Source: an uncultured delta proteobacterium | GTDB taxonomy: Bacteria > Myxococcota_A > Polyangia > Polyangiales > B10-G4 | Assembly (NCBI GenBank): GCA_963727445.1 | Contig: CAVSGI010000002.1 | Location: 32,001 to 96,000, forward strand | Direction: 5' to 3' | DNA: 64,000 nucleotides | Shown here: positions 17,244 to 61,314 of the stretch, piece after piece | How the letters are laid out: every line of letters begins with the position of its first letter | How positions within the stretch are numbered: position 1 is the first letter of the stretch | Notes under the pieces: model-generated | Told to the model about the DNA's origin: nothing | Database searches by the model: none | What the model saw: only the letters and a program-made list of their open reading frames with translations | Translations under genes and position numbers: made by a program

Positions 17244-17374
17244 GGCGCGGCGGTATTACAAGAAGCCGCCATGGGTGCAAATCGAGGGCCCCGCGGATGG
17301 CGGATCCGCCCGTTCGCCGTGAATGAGCGTCCACGATCGCGAGCTCGGCGCACGGCATCCTTCGACAATTCGCA

Positions 17375-17390
17375 CGGCATCCATCTTGCT
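17375..17390 (+). promoter_or_regulatory. Putative sigma54 -24/-12 promoter
   Basis: CGGCATCCATCTTGCT has GG-N10-GC spacing and TTGC, 17 bp before ATG 17408. Confidence 0.55.
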
Positions 17391-17407
17391 GACGCGCGAA
17401 GGTGACC

Positions 17408-17980
17408 ATGTACACCCTCCTTCGGGCATCCCTCCTCCTCGCCCTCTTCGCGTCCGCCGCTTGCGGCACCGCCCCCGGGTACACCCGCGACCAGACGGTT
17501 CAGGATCGAACCGCCACCGTCGCTTCCTCGCCCACGACTGTTGCCGTCCACCACGACGGCGACGTGACGACCCGCGAGCTCGCCCAGGGCGAGACCGCCG
17601 TGATCGTCGTGCCGACGCCGGCCCCCGCGCAGCCCCAGGTCGTGCTCCAACAGGCCCCGACTCCCCAAGAGGTCGCGGCCCCTGCGACGCCGGCCCCGGC
17701 CGGGCCCGCCGCGGCCTTCACCTGCAGCGGCAATCAGGAGCTGCGCCTGCACAACCGCCACGTCAACGGCGACGGCGGAGTCGCGGTCTTCGCCACCGAC
17801 GACTGCCACGTCGTGATCTCGGAGGTCATCCTCCGCGGCGAGCCGGCGGTGGTCGCGATGGGCAACGCGCGGGTCGACGTGGTGGAGACGCGGATCTACG
17901 GCGACCTGGTGTCGAGCGGCAACGCGACCGTGAACGTGCGCGGCTCCCGCCATCACACCGGCACCGTCGTCCGCAACTGA
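17408..17980 (+). CDS. Hypothetical lipoprotein (Pro/Ala linker, short beta-rich C-terminus)
   Basis: Lipobox ASAAC; codon usage typical of this window. Confidence 0.7.
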   Translation: MYTLLRASLLLALFASAACGTAPGYTRDQTVQDRTATVASSPTTVAVHHDGDVTTRELAQGETAVIVVPTPAPAQPQVVLQQAPTPQEVAAPATPAPAGPAAAFTCSGNQELRLHNRHVNGDGGVAVFATDDCHVVISEVILRGEPAVVAMGNARVDVVETRIYGDLVSSGNATVNVRGSRHHTGTVVRN

Positions 17981-18069
17981 AGCGCCTCCACGGCTCACAA
18001 GAGACGGCCGTCTTCCGGTATACTGGACTTCGGTCGCGGCGCGCGCGCCGGGCCGAAGGAGGACTTCTC

Positions 18070-19227
18070 ATGCGTGCTTTCTCTGCTTCTTCATTCGTCA
18101 TCATCCTGACTTTCGCCGGCCTCGGCTGCGGCGACGACGGTGGCGCCGCGGGCGACACCGGAACGGCGATGGACGGTGGCGATACCGGCACCTCGATGGA
18201 CTCGGGGGGTGGAGGAGACGGTGGAGGCGGCGACGGCAGCGCGGGCGACGGCGGCGGCGGTGACGGCAGCGCGGGCGACGGCGGCGGGGGCGACGGTGGC
18301 GGTGGCGACGCCGGCATCAGCTGCGCGGCGGGCGAAACGGCTTGCGGCACGACCTGCGTGACCCTCGGCTCCGACCCTGCGAACTGTGGTGACTGCGGCA
18401 TGGCCTGCGCGAGCGGCGAGGTCTGCTCGGGCGGCACCTGCGCCGCGATGTGTTCGGGGGGGCTGACCGATTGTAGCGGCGCTTGCGTGGACACCCAGAC
18501 CGACACCGCCAACTGCGGCGACTGCGGCATGGCTTGCGCCAGCGGCGAGACCTGCGCCTTCGGCACCTGCGGCTGCGCCTTCGGCGAGGTCGACTGTAGC
18601 GGCACCTGCGCGAACCTGCGCAACGACCCCGCCAATTGCGGCGGCTGCGGAATGGCGTGCGCGTCCGGGGAGGTGTGCTCGCGCGGCGTCTGCGCCGCGA
18701 TGTGCGGCACGGGGCTCACGGATTGCAGTGGCACCTGCACCAACACCGACTTCGACCCCGCCAACTGCGGCGGCTGCGGAATGGCGTGCGCCAGCGGAGA
18801 GGTCTGCAACGCAGGCACCTGCACCGTGATGTGTGGCTTCGGCGAACGTTACTGCGACGGCGCATGCGTCACGACCTTCAACGATCCGGCGAACTGCGGC
18901 GACTGCGGCAACGCGTGCGCTTCCGGCGAAGCCTGCTCTCGTGGCGTGTGCACCGGCATGTGCCCCGCGGGCACCACCGATTGCAGCGGCTCGTGCGTGC
19001 GCACCGACTTCGACCCGGCTAACTGTGGCGGGTGCGGCACCGCGTGCGCTGCGGACGAGTACTGCGCCGCCGGCACCTGCACCGGCTGCCCAGGCGGTAG
19101 CACGTCGTGCGGCGGAGTCTGCACCAACACCGACACCGATCCACGCAACTGCGGCTCGTGCGGCACGACCTGCGGCCGCCGCCAGGTCTGCCGGAGCGGC
19201 AGCTGCGTCGGCTTCGGCACACCCTGA
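18070..19227 (+). CDS. Cys-rich repeat lipoprotein with 7 D-[PT]-x-N-C-G-x-C-G (Stig1/MXAN_6577-like) repeats
   Basis: Lipobox GLGC, GGGDG linker, seven repeats of about 42 aa. Confidence 0.8.
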   Translation: MRAFSASSFVIILTFAGLGCGDDGGAAGDTGTAMDGGDTGTSMDSGGGGDGGGGDGSAGDGGGGDGSAGDGGGGDGGGGDAGISCAAGETACGTTCVTLGSDPANCGDCGMACASGEVCSGGTCAAMCSGGLTDCSGACVDTQTDTANCGDCGMACASGETCAFGTCGCAFGEVDCSGTCANLRNDPANCGGCGMACASGEVCSRGVCAAMCGTGLTDCSGTCTNTDFDPANCGGCGMACASGEVCNAGTCTVMCGFGERYCDGACVTTFNDPANCGDCGNACASGEACSRGVCTGMCPAGTTDCSGSCVRTDFDPANCGGCGTACAADEYCAAGTCTGCPGGSTSCGGVCTNTDTDPRNCGSCGTTCGRRQVCRSGSCVGFGTP

Positions 19228-19305: not shown

Positions 19306-20028
19306 TCAGTCGACCGACACCACCACGGCGGTGATGTTGTCGCGAGCGTCGTTGCGCCAGGCTTCGCTGATGAGCGCGGGGATCACCAGCTCGTTTGGGG
19401 CGCTCGAGAGGATCGACCACAGGCGCCGGTGACTCACGGAGCCCGACAGCCCGTCGCTGCAGATGAGGTAGCGATCACTGGGCTCGAGGGTGACGCTCAC
19501 CACCTCGTGCCCTGGCTCACCCACCCCGAGCGCGCGGGTGAGGATGTGGCCGTTCGCCGCCCGATAGGCCTCTGGCACGCCGGCGGCGCGGAGCTCTTCG
19601 AGGAGGGAGTGGTCCCGGGTGAGCGCCTCGAGGCGCGACGATCGATAGCGGTAGATGCGGCTGTCTCCCACGTGGGCGATCACCGCTGCGCCGTCGGATT
19701 CGACGCGAAGCGCAGCGAGGGTCGTCCCCATCTGCGCCAGCGCTCCTGTACGCGCCCGCGCGACCTCCTGGTGGGCCATGCGGAAGGCGAGATCCATCCG
19801 GGCTTCCCGGATCGACGCATCGTCGTTGCTCGCGTCGCCGGCGCGCTCGAAGAAGCGCGTGAGGGTCTGGATGGCGAGGCGGCTCGCGATCTCGCCACCA
19901 TCGTAACCTCCGACGCCATCGGCGACGGCGTACACACCGGCGAAGTGATCGACGGTGAAGAGGTCTTGGTTCTGGGACCGGCGGCCGATGTCGGTACCAC
20001 CGAACGCCGACAAGCGGATGGGAGTCAT
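19306..20028 (-). CDS. PP2C-family Ser/Thr protein phosphatase
   Basis: TDIGRR..NQD, VADGVGG, MGTT, HVGDSRIY, LTRDHS, LTRALG, CSDGL, DNIT. Confidence 0.92.
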   Translation of the reverse strand: MTPIRLSAFGGTDIGRRSQNQDLFTVDHFAGVYAVADGVGGYDGGEIASRLAIQTLTRFFERAGDASNDDASIREARMDLAFRMAHQEVARARTGALAQMGTTLAALRVESDGAAVIAHVGDSRIYRYRSSRLEALTRDHSLLEELRAAGVPEAYRAANGHILTRALGVGEPGHEVVSVTLEPSDRYLICSDGLSGSVSHRRLWSILSSAPNELVIPALISEAWRNDARDNITAVVVSVD

Positions 20029-20041
20029 CGGCCCGAAGCAT

Positions 20042-20057
20042 TGCGATCCCCGTGCCA
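20042..20057 (-). promoter_or_regulatory. Putative sigma54 -24/-12 promoter of the PP2C gene
   Basis: Minus strand TGGCACGGGGATCGCA versus consensus TGGCACG-N4-TTGCW. Confidence 0.65.
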
Positions 20058-20100
20058 CGCAAAAAGTCCATGAATCACGGCTTGCTGCTCGGACGAAGGC

Positions 20101-20133
20101 TCACGTCTCTGAAACATGCGTTTCAGATGTGAA
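20101..20133. promoter_or_regulatory. Palindromic enhancer-like site TCTGAAAC-N4-GTTTCAGA(TGTGAA)
   Basis: Inverted repeat about 45-75 bp upstream of the sigma54 motif; shares TTTCAGAT[CG]TGAA with the sites at 60589-60675. Confidence 0.55.
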
Positions 20134-58062: not shown

Positions 58063-59661
58063 ATGGGGAGCGATGGAGACAACGACTCCGGCCCCCGCGC
58101 CTTCGTTGCAGTAAAGCTGGGGGAGCGGAGCTGGGTGGTGGACCTGCCCAGGGGCAAACACTCCGTGGGCAGCTCCGAAGACGCCGACATGACGCTCCCC
58201 GCGGGCGACGTCGCCGGACGGCATTTCGAGCTCCAGTGGGACGGTCAGATCCTGATGCTGCGGCCGGACAAGTCGCGCCATCCCCTCTTTCTGAACGGCA
58301 AGCGCTTCGAGGACGCCTCGGAGCTGAAGCCCGGCGACGAGATCGCGGTCGGCAGCGCGCAGCTCGTGGTGGGCGTGGCTGTCCCCCCGTCGGCGGGCGG
58401 GCGGCGTGCGCTCACCCATCACGAGTTTCGCGAGCGCCTCTACGAAGAAGTTGCGCGGGCGTCCCGCGGCGGACGGCCCACCACGCTGGTGATGCTCGGC
58501 ACGCCGCCCGGCGAAGGCAAGCGCGTCGCCACCCACGCGCTCAAGCGATTCCGTGCGGGCGACGTCCTCGGGACGTACGCGCACGACGAGCTCGAGATCC
58601 TCCTGCCCGACACGCCCGCCGACACCGCGCAGATGGTGATCGAACGGCTGCTGGGCGAGGTGGGCTCTCTGGGATCGCGCGCCGGTCTGGCGGTCGCTCC
58701 CGAGCATGGGGAGCATCCCGAGCGACTGCTCCGCGCCGCCCGGCGCGCGCTGGCGGCAGCGCAGGCGGGCGAAGCGACGAGCGCGATGCCTCCGCCCCGC
58801 GTGCACAAAGAAGCCGAGCCCGAGGCCCGGGATGGCGCGAGCCAGGCGGTGATCGAGGACCTCGCGAAGATCGCGGATGACGCTGGCTCGGTGCTCCTCA
58901 CCGGCGAGGTCTCGAGCGGCAAAGCGCTCTTCGCGCGTCAGATGCACGACCTCAGCGGCCGCAAGGACGGGCCCTTCGTCGTGATCGCCTGCGCCTCCCT
59001 CCAGGACGACGAGCAGAGCGACGCCTTCGCCCATGCGGTGAAGGAGGCTTCGGGTGGAACCCTTCTCCTCGACGAGGTGGGCGACCTCTCCGAAACGACC
59101 CAGACACAGCTCACGCGGCTGCTCGCGGAAGCTCAGGACGTCCGCATCGTGGCCACCACCCATCGTGCCCTCGCGGGGCTCGTCGAGCGCGAGGCCTTCG
59201 ACCACAGCCTCTACGCGCGCCTCACGGATCACGTCGTCGAGTTGCCGCCGCTGCGCAACCGACCCGAGGACATCATCCCCCTCGCCGAGCACTTCGCCCT
59301 CGAGAGCGGAGCCAAGGCGCCAGTGCGCATGGCCCCCGGCGCCCTCGCTCGCCTCCGCAGCCACCCCTGGCCCGGCAACGTCCTCGAGCTGCGCAACGCG
59401 ATGGAGCGCGCCGTCCACCTCGCGGGGGACGGCGAGATCCTCGCCGAGCACCTCCCCAGTGACGCTCTGCCCGCCGCAGGCGAAGGACGCCTCAGAGAGC
59501 ACGTGGACTCGGTCGAGCGGGACGCCATCGTCAAAGCGCTCGCCGACGCCAACCACAACCAGACCCACGCCGCCAAACGCCTCGGCATCAGCCGCCGCGC
59601 CCTCATCTACAAGATGGAGAAGTACGGGCTGAAGGCGCCACCGGGGCAGGCGAGAAGGTAG
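58063..59661 (+). CDS. FHA + degenerate GGDEF + AAA + Fis-HTH regulator lacking the GAFTGA loop
   Basis: FHA-like N-terminus, GEVSSGK, LLLDEVG, PPLRNR.EDI, WPGNV.EL.N, AAKRLGISRRAL. Confidence 0.85.
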   Translation: MGSDGDNDSGPRAFVAVKLGERSWVVDLPRGKHSVGSSEDADMTLPAGDVAGRHFELQWDGQILMLRPDKSRHPLFLNGKRFEDASELKPGDEIAVGSAQLVVGVAVPPSAGGRRALTHHEFRERLYEEVARASRGGRPTTLVMLGTPPGEGKRVATHALKRFRAGDVLGTYAHDELEILLPDTPADTAQMVIERLLGEVGSLGSRAGLAVAPEHGEHPERLLRAARRALAAAQAGEATSAMPPPRVHKEAEPEARDGASQAVIEDLAKIADDAGSVLLTGEVSSGKALFARQMHDLSGRKDGPFVVIACASLQDDEQSDAFAHAVKEASGGTLLLDEVGDLSETTQTQLTRLLAEAQDVRIVATTHRALAGLVEREAFDHSLYARLTDHVVELPPLRNRPEDIIPLAEHFALESGAKAPVRMAPGALARLRSHPWPGNVLELRNAMERAVHLAGDGEILAEHLPSDALPAAGEGRLREHVDSVERDAIVKALADANHNQTHAAKRLGISRRALIYKMEKYGLKAPPGQARR

Positions 59662-59663
59662 GC

Positions 59664-60412
59664 AGGGGCCGCTCCAACGGAGCGGCCCCCCACGAAAAGG
59701 CTCGGCATCGCGAAGCGTAGGGCCCGCAAAAGGCCGCGCAGCGGCCTGACGCGGGACCGCAGCGTAGCGAGGCCGAGCCGGGATTGCGCCCCCCCCACGA
59801 AAAGGCTCGGCATCGCGAAGCGTAGGGCCCGCAAAAGGCCGCGCAGCGGCCTGACGCGGGACCGCAGCGTAGCGAGGCCGAGCCGGGATTGCGCCCCCCC
59901 CACGAAAAGGCTCGGCATCGCGAAGCGTAGGGCCCGCAAAAGGCCGCGCAGCGGCCTGACGCGGGACCGCAGCGTAGCGAGGCCGAGCCGGGATTGCGCC
60001 CCCCCCACGAAAAGGCTCGGCATCGCGAAGCGTAGGGCCCGCAAAAGGCCGCGCAGCGGCCTGACGCGGGACCGCAGCGTAGCGAGGCCGAGCCGGGATT
60101 GCGCCCCCCCACGAAAAGGCTCGGCATCGCGAAGCGTAGGGCCCGCAAAAGGCCGCGCAGCGGCCTGACGCGGGACCGCAGCGTAGCGAGGCCGAGCCGG
60201 GATTGCGCCCCCCCCACGAAAAGGCTCGGCATCGCGAAGCGTAGGGCCCGCAAAAGGCCGCGCAGCGGCCTGACGCGGGACCGCAGCGTAGCGAGGCCGA
60301 GCCGGGATTGCGCCCCCCCCACGAAAAGGCTCGGCATCGCGAAGCGTAGGGCCCGCAAGAGGCCGCGCAGCGGTTGAGCCTTCTCGTGGGGCCGCTCCGT
60401 TGGAGCGGCCCT
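59664..60412. repeat. Array of six near-identical 105-bp units plus a partial seventh, bracketed by ~38-bp inverted repeats (REP/BIME- or MITE-like)
   Basis: ACGAAAAGG recurs at 59692, 59797, 59902, 60007, 60111, 60216 and 60321. Left end GGGCCGCTCCAACGGAGCGGCCCC..ACGAAAAGGCTC is inverted at 60376-60412. Confidence 0.92.
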
Positions 60413-60413
60413 T

Positions 60414-60452
60414 AAAAGCCGCGACCCGCAGCGAAAACTCGCTACGGGTCGC
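60414..60452 (-). terminator. Intrinsic terminator-like hairpin
   Basis: Minus strand GCGACCCGTAGCGA-GTTT-TCGCTGCGGGTCGC followed by GGCTTTT. Confidence 0.7.
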
Positions 60453-60520
60453 TCGAACTCGCGAGAGAAGACAGAGGGCGAAGGGGGGGGTACGCCAAGC
60501 TCCGTCTCTCTCGCGCTTCG
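60414..60520 (-). ncRNA. Putative sigma54-dependent small RNA (~105 nt) with C8 loop
   Basis: Starts about 12 nt after the -12 GC; long stem with loop UACCCCCCCCUU, then a terminator hairpin; no credible ORF. Confidence 0.6.
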
Positions 60521-60527
60521 ATGCCTA

Positions 60528-60543
60528 AGCGAGGTTCGTGCCA
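60528..60543 (-). promoter_or_regulatory. Putative sigma54 -24/-12 promoter
   Basis: Minus strand TGGCACGAACCTCGCT. Confidence 0.68.
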
Positions 60544-60588
60544 ATCAATTAGCGCTGCAATTTCCGTTGGGGCCGGCCGCGGATCCCC

Positions 60589-60675
60589 CACATCTGAAAG
60601 AGGCTGCCTTTCCTTACGTGAGGATCGTAGACAGGTGTCATTCAGATCTGAAACACCGAAATTTCAGATCTGAAA
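60589..60675. promoter_or_regulatory. Three copies of the palindromic TTCAGAT[CG]TG(AA) enhancer-like site
   Basis: CACATCTGAAA at 60589-60599, TTCAGATCTGAA at 60641-60652, TTTCAGATCTGAAA at 60662-60675. Confidence 0.62.
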
Positions 60676-60685
60676 CGGCCGAATT

Positions 60686-61198
60686 CTACTTGATGACGCG
60701 CAGATACGGCGGCAGAGGCGTTGATCCTCGGCGTTTCTTGTCGCCGGAGCCGGGTCCGGAAGTTTTCCTTCGTTTGCCGGGATCGAGGGGCGTCAGGGGC
60801 GTCACCTCGGCCAGCTCCTCGGTGGGAGGCTGTGGCGCGCGCCGTCCCGCCTCTCGATCGACCTCCGCGGCGATCTCCGCGGGCAGGTCTTCGGGCCACA
60901 CCATCCCCCGGCCATCCTCACCCACCAGGGCGAAGACCGCCTTCCAGGGCACGACGCACGCATAAGGGGTGCGCGAAAAGCTCAGGGTCGCGAAGACCCC
61001 CTCCTCGTCGACCCGCAGATCCGGGATGGGGATCGGCAGATCCAGCCCGATCTGCAGCACGAGCTGGGGCTGTCGCGAGAGCCAGGCCGGCACCTGCACG
61101 CCCTCGAGACGCGGATCGAGGTGGACGAAAACGCTGCCACGAAGGAGCAGCCCTCGGGCTACGTCACGTTTGTCCGGAAGCTCCTCGAGATCCGCCAC
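60686..61198 (-). CDS. sspB: Stringent starvation protein B / ClpXP adaptor-like protein
   Basis: VHLDPR..GV.VP, LVLQIG..PIPIPDL, ATLSF, VPW.AVFA, C-terminal PYLRVIK (ClpX-binding-like tail). Confidence 0.8.
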   Translation of the reverse strand: MADLEELPDKRDVARGLLLRGSVFVHLDPRLEGVQVPAWLSRQPQLVLQIGLDLPIPIPDLRVDEEGVFATLSFSRTPYACVVPWKAVFALVGEDGRGMVWPEDLPAEIAAEVDREAGRRAPQPPTEELAEVTPLTPLDPGKRRKTSGPGSGDKKRRGSTPLPPYLRVIK

Positions 61199-61314
61199 TG
61201 CCAGGTGTTAGCCCATCGGCGGGGGCCTCGCCAATTGCGCTGGGCGCACGCCGCCTCCCCGAGCAACTCACCCTGAACAAGCGTTTTCCCCGTGCGACGG
61301 GTAAGATCTGCCGA

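Follow-up and report, generated by a model that had tools for sequence, protein, structure and literature searches.

Organization of the sspB–EBP intergenic region

The window, that is, the whole 64,000-nt stretch of DNA analyzed here, derives from a genome of 9.47 Mb. It carries an sspB-like gene of the ClpXP adaptor family on the minus strand (60686–61198; Pfam SspB, 33.8 bits) and a gene for a sigma-54 enhancer-binding protein (EBP) with the Pfam domains FHA, AAA+ and HTH_8 on the plus strand (58063–59661). Directly downstream of sspB and convergent with the EBP gene lies a predicted sRNA of ~104 nt (60414–60517, minus strand, counted from +1 to the end of the U-tract), supported by its fold and by a match to the covariance model R2 described below. 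The original prediction had placed here three TTCAGAT[CG]TG sites, a sigma-54 promoter, a C-loop hairpin, a 14-bp hairpin and a U-tract; all of these are present, in numbers far beyond chance, and their coordinates stand apart from small corrections.

The perfect palindrome TTCAGATCTGAA occurs twice as a putative enhancer (UAS) site, at 60663–60674 (−131 from the promoter start) and, 22 bp from the first copy, at 60641–60652. A promoter-proximal variant site, TTCAGATGTGGG (60587–60598, minus strand), has its core TTCAGATGTG at 60598–60589. These sites are followed by the −24/−12 promoter TGGCACGAACCTCGCT (60528–60543, minus strand), identified by the sigma-54 motif TGGCAC-N7-GC and its count in the window. 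The predicted start near 60517 follows from the position of the promoter (12 nt past the −12 GC), and the start first proposed agrees with this spacing. The first hairpin (60454–60520, minus strand) measures 67 nt, not the ~68 nt first given, and presents a 12-nt loop UACCCCCCCCUU (60492–60481) with C8 at 60490–60483. The predicted terminator (60414–60452, minus strand) consists of a 14-bp hairpin (60452–60421) followed by GGCUUUU, in which the U4 occupies 60417–60414. A simple terminator scan did not call it, since the U-tract has just four U; read-through is therefore possible. Past the terminator is a second GC hairpin, GGGCCGCUCC-AAC-GGAGCGGCCC (60389–60411, minus strand), and an inverted copy of this hairpin is found at 59665–59689, immediately past the stop codon of the EBP gene.

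The motif TTCAGATSTG gives six strand-matches (four sites) in the 64-kb window where 0.09 are expected, and the promoter pattern TGGCACGNNNNTYGCW gives two where 0.06 are expected. The exact 12-mer palindrome TTCAGATCTGAA has two copies in the 9.47-Mb genome, both at this locus (0.05 expected). The 132-nt stretch of promoter and RNA is single-copy in the genome, with other matches of at most 18 nt, at chance level; the hairpins are thus not dispersed, a point on which the original prediction could have failed. Folding of the 107-nt RNA gave −65.7 kcal/mol, versus −39.7 ± 3.2 kcal/mol for 200 shuffled sequences (z = −8.18; none as good), and the minimum-energy structure has two hairpins. The region had been described as devoid of ORFs; mechanical ORFs of 49 aa and of 313 aa, the latter extending through the adjacent repeat, do overlap it, and we found no convincing protein-coding ORF among them. 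There is no co-directional gene downstream, so the unit is not a leader. The genome contains rpoN, while a search of it did not find Hfq, in agreement with the account of a host phylum without Hfq in PMC5568312. For 60300–61200 of the window, a search of sequencing runs listed no RNA run; one DNA run from a soil metagenome matched, with a word share of 0.08.

In the adjacent array (59686–60373) an imperfect palindrome of 105 nt is repeated 6.6 times in tandem, with G8 on the strand of the sRNA and C8 on the opposite one. As a protein gene the array was rejected, because its frames are open owing to the repeat only and one unit of 104 nt shifts the frame. A match to T2SSM_b in a 145-aa ORF (27.0 bits against a cut-off of 21.7) was likewise discarded as an artefact of summed repeats, as no single stretch passes. 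In one frame the GC3 of the array is gene-like, and a coding reading is not strictly removed.

Another explanation of the locus would be that transcription from the promoter mainly continues past the weak terminator, through the array and into the 3′ end of the EBP gene. The unit would then act on the EBP, in cis or as an antisense RNA, or the G8 of the array RNA would pair with the C8 loop. The short U-tract of the terminator would permit this, each of six array units carries G8 on the same strand 100–700 nt downstream, and C or G runs of at least eight number only 142 in 9.47 Mb. However, the array is absent from all other family members examined, its complementarity to the loop stops at the homopolymer, and R2 has no match in it. 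The array unit is moreover a dispersed palindromic element, of which single copies occur elsewhere without a C8 or G8 run. We consider this explanation quite improbable.

Distribution and conservation of the predicted RNA family

Two covariance models were used: R1, built from a three-hairpin subtype alone, and R2, an iterated model of the promoter and first hairpin from whose training the window was left out. R2 matches the window at 60462–60543 (minus strand) with 35.7 bits (E = 6e-6 in 94 kb; next-best match in the window, 14.1 bits), and elsewhere in the 9.47-Mb genome it matches nothing. With R1 the window obtains 10.7 bits, a score that does not exceed background, and the probable membership of the window RNA in the family rests on the iterated R2, whose score takes in the promoter.

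When 151 genomes of the order were searched with R2, 56 gave a match, in most cases a single one; this count includes one match in an unpublished genome. At 80 sspB loci it gave 48 matches in 46, a lower bound (at least 46/80) on the loci with a member, and a module scan was positive in 43 of 80. The strict pattern was found in 18/401 genomes of the order (reversed-pattern control, 0). With a C6 run required in addition, the pattern was present in 20 of the 401 genomes sampled from the phylum (control, 0) and confined to the order of the window (19/64; other genomes, 0/336). The conservation of promoter and loop, proposed as a check at the outset, was borne out: enhancer motif, promoter and C-run hairpin recur in at least eight families of the order. 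The relatives carrying family members are assigned to Polyangiales, Polyangiaceae or Sandaracinaceae; one of the genomes matched by R2 is complete, and the module is also present at a locus labeled "uncultured Sandaracinus sp."

The window and its relatives have a common layout, with palindrome-type sites 55–130 nt upstream of a TGGCAC-N7-GC promoter, and in other genomes, too, the TTCAGATCTGAA-type motif precedes the family members. As in the family, the window has a loop of at least six C in a hairpin 30–40 nt past the promoter and then a terminator, its U-tract being weak. Behind 49 distinct module promoters, 113 of 121 such C-runs lie in hairpin loops, compared to 77 of 400 random genomic C-runs. 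Members hold one to four C-loop hairpins, with near-identical loops in the multi-hairpin members, and the loops of some read CCUCC, which is anti-Shine-Dalgarno. The conserved neighbor across relatives is sspB, and the window agrees with them in this respect.

The three-hairpin subtype (~147 nt, from marine myxobacteria) was compared among 31 close relatives. Over its three C-loop hairpins, compensatory changes were seen at 14 of the 50 pairs predicted, and the conserved stretch runs from the promoter to the U-tract, setting the boundaries of the gene in these relatives. The subtype agrees with the window RNA, to which it is joined by the iterated R2, in its enhancer motif, its promoter and spacing, and the loop motif CGUACCCCCC. 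It differs in having three hairpins instead of one, in being convergent to sspB, whereas the window RNA is co-directional with it, and in having no adjacent FHA-EBP gene, whereas the window RNA has one.

The genus is represented by one further genome, 86% complete, in which neither an R2 match nor sspB was found. The one module of motif and promoter in that genome follows the gene of another EBP, of the NtrC type, and runs off the contig; in the genome of the window, the orthologue of that EBP gene has no module behind it.

The hairpins might also represent nothing other than the 3′ UTR and terminator of sspB, with promoter and palindromes present by chance or as a relic, and indeed no terminator for sspB precedes the module. 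This is very improbable, as the RNA of the three-hairpin subtype is convergent to sspB and other members lie on either strand relative to it with promoter, spacing and loops retained, and as motif and promoter both occur far more often than expected by chance. The comparisons point instead to an uncatalogued family of predicted sRNAs that is conserved in many Polyangiales, usually next to sspB. We found no literature pairing "Polyangiales" and "sRNA", and, among the papers listed, nothing relevant on small RNAs or sigma-54 in Sorangium, Sandaracinus or Chondromyces, or on sigma-54-dependent C-rich small RNAs of myxobacteria; a survey of sigma-54 regulons (PMC12316311) makes no mention of sRNA.

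Comparison with Pxr and other C-loop RNAs

An Rfam search including Pxr had been suggested with the original prediction. Among 4227 families scanned against 60400–60530 of the window (131 nt), Pxr (RF01812), a developmental regulator of Myxococcus xanthus, was the best match, over its full length (1–109), with 24.1 bits (E = 0.011), far under the gathering threshold of 80 bits; true pxr loci, three confirmed by Rfam, score 125–129 bits. Sequence homology to Pxr had not been asserted, in keeping with this score. What had been asserted is a Pxr-like architecture, and nine pxr genes, fetched via a published primer motif, display it: a sigma-54 promoter 45 nt upstream, a C7 loop in the first hairpin (UUCCCCCCCA) and a terminator hairpin. 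The window RNA likewise combines a sigma-54 promoter, a C-run loop in the first stem-loop and a 3′ terminator hairpin whose GC core resembles that of pxr, and the two have in common a size of ~105–110 nt and an EBP gene next door. The distance from the promoter start to the beginning of the C-run is 53 nt in the window RNA and 59 nt in pxr. The Rfam alignment to the three stem-loops of Pxr (SL1–SL3) places a 4-bp SL2 in the window RNA; the minimum-energy fold has two hairpins. The stems show no sequence likeness and the enhancer motifs differ. The window RNA lies between sspB and a convergent FHA-type EBP gene, whereas pxr is accompanied by the NtrC-type regulator pxrR/nla19 and NADH dehydrogenase, being placed by PMC5568312 downstream of pxrR/nla19 and beside the NADH dehydrogenase gene. 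Furthermore, PMC5568312 and PMC8538405 describe Pxr from Cystobacterineae only, and the window RNA is found in Polyangiales. The SL1 loop is described as essential to Pxr function in PMC5684412. On these comparisons of sequence and predicted fold, the window RNA shares the Pxr architecture and does not qualify as a member of the Pxr family.

It is possible, though in our view unlikely, that the window RNA is a diverged true homologue of Pxr, which would imply one old myxobacterial sigma-54/C-loop lineage and is compatible with our preferred explanation of the locus. Besides being the best of the 4227 families, Pxr aligns with the window RNA at the C-runs and at the terminator cores (GCGACCCG/CGGGUCGC and GCGGCCCG/CGGGCCGC). 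R2 matches nine of nine pxr loci at the promoter and SL1 with 16.2–23.8 bits (best background, 10.4), but much of this score comes from promoter and C-run, features for which the pxr loci had been pre-selected, and R1 gives them at most 13.1 bits. At one locus of the family the RNA gene is repeated in tandem and every copy has a separate sigma-54 promoter, as described for pxr of Cystobacter in PMC5568312. An Rfam scan of 20 other family members yielded no Pxr match at E ≤ 10; as the window RNA also loses its match at this search size, the result reflects a filter effect and is not evidence. The scan was replaced by a Pxr covariance model of our own (R3), run with filters off, which ranked the window first (19.1 bits) and gave at least 10 bits for 6 of 20 family loci and for none of 19 controls with C or G runs of at least eight (best, 9.5).

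Against homology stand the score far below the Rfam threshold, the stems without common sequence, the other enhancer motifs and the other synteny. In addition, the unrelated C-loop sRNAs 6C and ar7 score equally on other family members, which indicates that the design converges easily. No intermediates were found outside the order, which says little on this matter, as the phylum samples held no Pxr host: a search for Pxr hosts found none among five large genomes, and 400 phylum-sample genomes gave 1-mismatch hits only, at the level of the reversed-pattern control. Pxr as one branch of an old phylum-wide sigma-54 C-loop lineage, and so no recent innovation of Cystobacterineae, with the Polyangiales family (at this locus connected to an FHA-domain activator, a PP2C phosphatase and sspB) as the other, is a tentative proposal of low probability. 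If it holds, the window RNA would be the family member that has stayed most like Pxr, with the top Rfam match and the same terminator core, in which one pair is compensatory.

Hairpins tipped by a C-run are also a feature of the sRNAs 6C (RF01066), ar7 (RF02342), CcsR1 (RF02791) and sX13 (RF02232) of other phyla, whose C-loops pair with G-rich mRNA sites. To our knowledge, none of these is sigma-54-dependent. All four appear among the sub-threshold Rfam matches of the relatives, none reaching its gathering score (6C and ar7, 27–33 bits versus thresholds of 47 and 60; among these, 31 and 27 bits for 6C and 30 and 27.8 bits for ar7), and the window RNA itself matched none of the four. The Qrr1–5 sRNAs of Vibrio, controlled by sigma-54 and LuxO, resemble the predicted RNA in another way, as they are short, sigma-54/EBP-dependent and base-pairing, at times multi-copy, with an EBP gene adjoining one copy (PMC3730234). 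Unlike the window RNA they are Hfq-dependent and have no C-run loop, and there is neither sequence likeness nor an Rfam match between the two.

Proposed activation and mode of action

We propose, with a probability of about 70%, that the locus holds a real, independently transcribed sRNA gene of ~104 nt that is controlled by sigma-54 and an EBP, acts by base-pairing through its C-loop and belongs to the family described above. An EBP bound at the upstream TTCAGATCTGAA palindromes would activate sigma-54 RNA polymerase, with transcription starting near 60517 from the TGGCAC-N7-GC promoter. The RNA would form one long hairpin showing UACCCCCCCCUU in its loop, followed by the intrinsic terminator.

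The candidate activator of the promoter is the convergent FHA-domain EBP, which would tie the RNA to Ser/Thr-phosphorylation signaling. The pair of motif and sigma-54 promoter recurs in the window 40 kb away, in front of a PP2C phosphatase ORF (20028–19306, minus strand). This second module (20042–20133, minus strand) comprises TTCACATCTGAA (20133–20122) and a promoter at 20057–20042, and the form of the variant site TTCAGATGTGGG precedes this promoter also. Of 80 loci, 18 have an orthologue of the FHA-EBP gene that converges on sspB; 11 of these 18 failed the strict module scan, several having only a short spacer between sspB and the EBP gene, and at least two of the 11 were later matched by R2. 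The linkage of the FHA-EBP to the family is not universal: the genus with three-hairpin RNAs has no close FHA-EBP orthologue or similar HTH. A search for a cognate EBP in that genus gave best matches of 38% (whole protein) and 43–46% (HTH), which were set aside as generic.

The C-run loop may pair, independently of Hfq, with G-rich stretches in mRNAs, for example in ribosome-binding regions, and this pairing would change translation or stability. Just upstream of the likely starts of long high-GC3 ORFs, runs of at least seven G were found in 37 of 670 cases and C-runs in 32 of 670, so no G-run enrichment near start codons indicates a target; nor is there a G-run upstream of the EBP gene or of sspB.

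Instead of pairing with mRNAs, the C-run loops could bind an RNA-binding protein and titrate it, in the manner of the sigma-54-dependent CrcZ or of CsrB/RsmZ. The repeated, near-identical loops of the multi-hairpin members would suit this, as would the missing enrichment of complementary G-runs at start codons and the failure to find Hfq. With its single loop, however, the window RNA is poorly suited to titration, and no poly-C-binding regulator is known or was found here; the CCUCC loops of some members and the base-pairing nature of the nearest Rfam families also speak against titration. We regard it as improbable and prefer base-pairing as the likely mode of action.

Among the sRNAs of myxobacteria only Pxr is well studied, and it is thought to be limited to one suborder. 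The predicted RNA would be another C-loop sRNA dependent on sigma-54, in most cases single-copy and retained beside sspB in roughly one-third or more of the sampled Polyangiales genomes, and it would provide the large, mostly uncultured Polyangiales with a first candidate riboregulator. The family is a clean candidate for inclusion in Rfam as a new entry, and with it the origin of Pxr becomes directly testable. Through the FHA-EBP and PP2C, it would link Ser/Thr-phosphorylation signaling to post-transcriptional control.

A predicted sigma-54-dependent sRNA gene next to sspB

On the minus strand of the window, an sspB-like ORF (61198–60686, Pfam SspB) is followed by all the elements of a predicted small RNA gene. 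The three TTCAGAT[CG]TG-type sites of the original prediction were read as two perfect copies of the palindrome TTCAGATCTGAA (60674–60663 and 60652–60641, with a spacing of 22 bp) and one variant, TTCAGATGTG (60598–60589). The predicted -24/-12 element was identified as the sigma-54 promoter TGGCACGAACCTCGCT (60543–60528), and the GC of its -12 element (60530–60529) places the predicted +1 at approximately 60517, as anticipated. The expected stem-loop of about 68 nt with a C8 loop, followed by a 14-bp hairpin and U-tract, corresponds to a hairpin of 67 nt (60520–60454) with the 12-nt loop UACCCCCCCCUU and a 14-bp terminator hairpin (60452–60421) that continues into GGCUUUU, giving a predicted RNA of approximately 104 nt. 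The terminator was not called by a simple terminator scan of the window, because its U-tract comprises only four U. As no co-directional gene is located downstream, the unit is not a 5' leader.

The motif counts at this locus greatly exceed chance. Within the window, TTCAGATSTG gives 6 strand-matches (0.09 expected), the sigma-54 promoter pattern has 2 (0.06 expected), and the exact palindrome TTCAGATCTGAA occurs twice in the 9.47 Mb genome, both times at the sRNA locus (0.05 expected). The fold energy is -65.7 kcal/mol, compared to -39.7 ± 3.2 for shuffled sequences (z = -8.18). The genome holds no second copy of the stretch of promoter and RNA. It does encode rpoN, and a search for Hfq in this assembly (85.6% complete) found none, which agrees with the description of myxobacteria as lacking Hfq in PMC5568312.

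Beyond the terminator lies a second GC hairpin (60411–60389), then a tandem array (59686–60373) of 6.6 copies of a 105-nt unit with 99% identity, one unit being 104 nt, and past this the 3' end of a convergent gene for an enhancer-binding protein (EBP) with FHA, sigma-54 AAA+ and HTH_8 Pfam domains (58063–59661). The second hairpin is one of two inverted copies of a 24-nt element, GGGGCCGCTCC-AAC-GGAGCGGCCCC, that flank the array (59665–59689 and 60389–60411), one directly after the EBP stop codon and the other directly after the sRNA terminator; it is found nowhere else in the genome. The array unit is a long imperfect palindrome, and each junction presents a C8 run on the plus strand, which reads as G8 on the strand of the sRNA, with complementarity to the sRNA loop confined to the run. 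Runs of at least eight C or G number only 142 in the genome. Diverged single copies of the unit, without the C8/G8 run, are intergenic on two other contigs (C18:34394–34488 and C14:69892–69928). No such array was found in other members of the sRNA family described below. Just behind the sRNA gene, three of their loci contain short tandem repeats or a partly duplicated terminator end (approximately +160 to +250 after the promoter in L003, +100 to +190 in L038 and +150 to +260 in L025), and repeats seem to expand readily in such regions. Elsewhere in the window, an ORF on the plus strand (17323–19227) contains 129-nt tandem repeats (18371–18834) that encode cysteine-rich repeats of the CG-x-CG-x-AC type.

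Extent and structure of the family in the Polyangiales

A DNA search of 60 relatives returned no alignable RNA and recovered the palindrome pair. The relatives' loci share one order, in which one or more palindromes are followed by TGGCAC-N7-GC, approximately 35 nt, a hairpin with a C6–C8 loop and a terminator. Promoter and palindromes are conserved together across the family, the number of C-loop hairpins ranges from one to four, and one locus (L045, 2236–2640) holds tandem C-loop sRNA genes, each with its own sigma-54 promoter and palindromes. The strict pattern for this module was found in 18 of 401 genomes of the order (reversed-pattern control, 0). With C6 included, it was found in 20 of 401 phylum-sample genomes, all in the window's order (19/64 there; 0/336 others; controls, 0).

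Among 80 sspB loci drawn from a genome collection, with record titles naming Polyangiales, Polyangiaceae, Sandaracinaceae or Myxococcota, 43 carry the module by regular-expression scan and 46 match the covariance model R2 (48 matches; some of these loci are R2 training members). The sRNA either follows sspB co-directionally, or converges on it, or is found beside the EBP gene on the opposite strand.

Downstream of 49 distinct module promoters, 113 of 121 C-runs of at least six are located in the loop of a hairpin with 5 or more closing base pairs, compared to 77 of 400 random genomic C-runs, a comparison to which no probability is attached since the instances are mutually related. In an alignment of the three-hairpin subtype (31 distinct sequences), conservation sets in at the promoter, weakens around +1 and ends directly after the U-tract. 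RNAalifold placed all three C-runs of this subtype in loops. Of the 50 pairs that it predicted, 14 show compensatory changes, and four are spurious pairs within the promoter.

A covariance model of the promoter and first hairpin of this subtype (R1) finds diverged family members and gives only 10.7 bits on the window, not above background. R2, built from 26 R1 matches with the window excluded, matches the window at 60462–60543 on the minus strand with 35.7 bits (E 6e-6 in 94 kb, filters off; next match in the window 14.1 bits), a score partly due to the promoter included in the model. Over the whole source genome, the window's sRNA is its one match. R2 matched 11 of 151 genomes in a phylum sample, all in the order (10/24 there; 0/4 in the class; 0/122 elsewhere), and 56 of 151 in an order sample, mostly once per genome (55/150 without the unpublished genome G122, which has one of these matches). 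By family, the latter are distributed as f9 20/23, f22 17/23, f3 6/15, f17 5/23, f7 3/10, f16 2/23, f5 1/1 and f23 1/1. These genome counts are lower bounds, as a member recognized by eye in genome G024 (29.9 bits) was missed under stricter filters.

No Rfam family reached its threshold for the window's RNA or for family members, and a literature search, run mostly outside subscription journals, found no paper on this sRNA family. The family appears undescribed, as do its association with sspB and its wide occurrence in the Polyangiales; as a kind of element, sigma-54-dependent regulatory sRNAs whose seed loop is C-rich are already known.

Putative enhancer sites and a candidate activator

The palindromes are putative enhancer sites. 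A second module in the window (20133–20042, minus strand), in which TTCACATCTGAA is joined by a further half-site and a sigma-54 promoter (20057–20042), directly precedes an ORF for a PP2C Ser/Thr phosphatase (module and ORF, 19306–20133). It is the only other site in the source genome with a palindrome variant before a TGGCACG-N4-TYGCW promoter; in a looser scan a third, weak site appeared on contig C9, where the palindrome has two mismatches and lies 191 nt upstream. The PP2C module is likely a second member of the sRNA's regulon.

The adjacent FHA-EBP is a candidate activator of the sRNA promoter, with the odds about even. FHA domains recognize phospho-threonine, which would fit a regulon that includes a PP2C phosphatase. 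An orthologue (at least 50% identity) is convergent to sspB at 18 of the 80 loci, and the strict scan found the module at 7 of these 18. Against this role, at many loci the sspB and EBP genes lie back to back and no RNA separates them, and the three-hairpin genus keeps the palindrome, yet has neither a close orthologue nor a similar HTH. Furthermore, the window's genus has one other genome (G001), and the single module found in it sits behind an NtrC-type regulator. There (L021, G001:C425, 1–300), TTCAGATCTGAA, a sigma-54 promoter and a C7 stretch lie just 3' of an NtrC-type response-regulator EBP gene, and the contig ends 86 nt past the promoter start. This layout is that of pxrR-pxr. In the source genome, the orthologue of this EBP (L174, G000:C6:744136–745408; 85–90% identity) is matched in two adjacent segments, as though a frameshift divided it, and has no module behind it.

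Likeness to Pxr and mode of action

The pxr gene, as described in PMC5568312 and PMC5684412, follows the NtrC-like gene pxrR/nla19, has its own sigma-54 promoter and encodes an RNA with three stem-loops (SL1–SL3); a C-to-A change of the fifth base in the SL1 loop abolishes function, Cystobacter has tandem paralogues, and these papers report the gene from Cystobacterineae only. The primer table of PMC5568312 places GGTTCCCCCCCACC in the 5' part of pxr, and with a pattern derived from it we retrieved 10 metagenome loci. Nine of these proved to be pxr genes, in which TGGCAC-N7-TGCT is located 45 nt upstream, the loop of SL1 reads UUCCCCCCCA, SL2 is short and a terminator hairpin is present, and three of them were named Pxr (RF01812) by Rfam (125–129 bits, threshold 80). 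The window's RNA, predicted to have a Pxr-like architecture, is indeed alike in design, as its sigma-54 promoter, C-run in the first loop and terminator hairpin are also present in these loci.

Whether this likeness reflects common ancestry is a separate matter, and we consider such descent rather unlikely, with odds well short of even. In a focused scan of 60400–60530, Pxr ranked first of 4227 Rfam families (24.1 bits, E 0.011, full model), with the C-runs and the terminator cores GCGACCCG/CGGGUCGC and GCGGCCCG/CGGGCCGC matching up, and R2 matched all nine pxr loci at promoter and SL1 (16.2–23.8 bits; best background 10.4). A model of Pxr (R3), applied to 40 short loci with filters off, ranked the window first (19.1 bits) and gave at least 10 bits for 6 of 20 family loci, compared to 0 of 19 control regions around C/G runs of at least eight (best 9.5). 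However, all cross-family scores are far below threshold, including that of the window's RNA for RF01812 (24.1 bits against 80), which places it outside that family, and R1 reaches at most 13.1 bits on pxr. As the pxr loci were picked via the C-run and R2 includes the promoter, much of the score reflects common design. Enhancer motif, neighbors and taxon are all unlike. A multi-locus Rfam scan of other family members was uninformative, as the window's own Pxr match vanishes at that search size, and the phylum samples contained no Pxr host.

The exposed C-run is the sole element kept family-wide, while stems vary freely, and the loops of some members read CCCCCCUCC or CCUCCU, an anti-Shine-Dalgarno sequence. 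Below threshold, members approach 6C (31 and 27 bits), ar7 (27.8–33 bits) and, more weakly, CcsR1 and sX13, all C-loop base-pairing sRNAs. Titration of a protein by the sRNA is the main functional rival to pairing with mRNA, and a crude search showed no enrichment of G-runs at start codons. Because the C-run is kept, anti-Shine-Dalgarno loops occur and the nearest Rfam families are base-pairing sRNAs, the favored reading is that the C-run loop would pair with G-rich mRNA sites, independently of Hfq.
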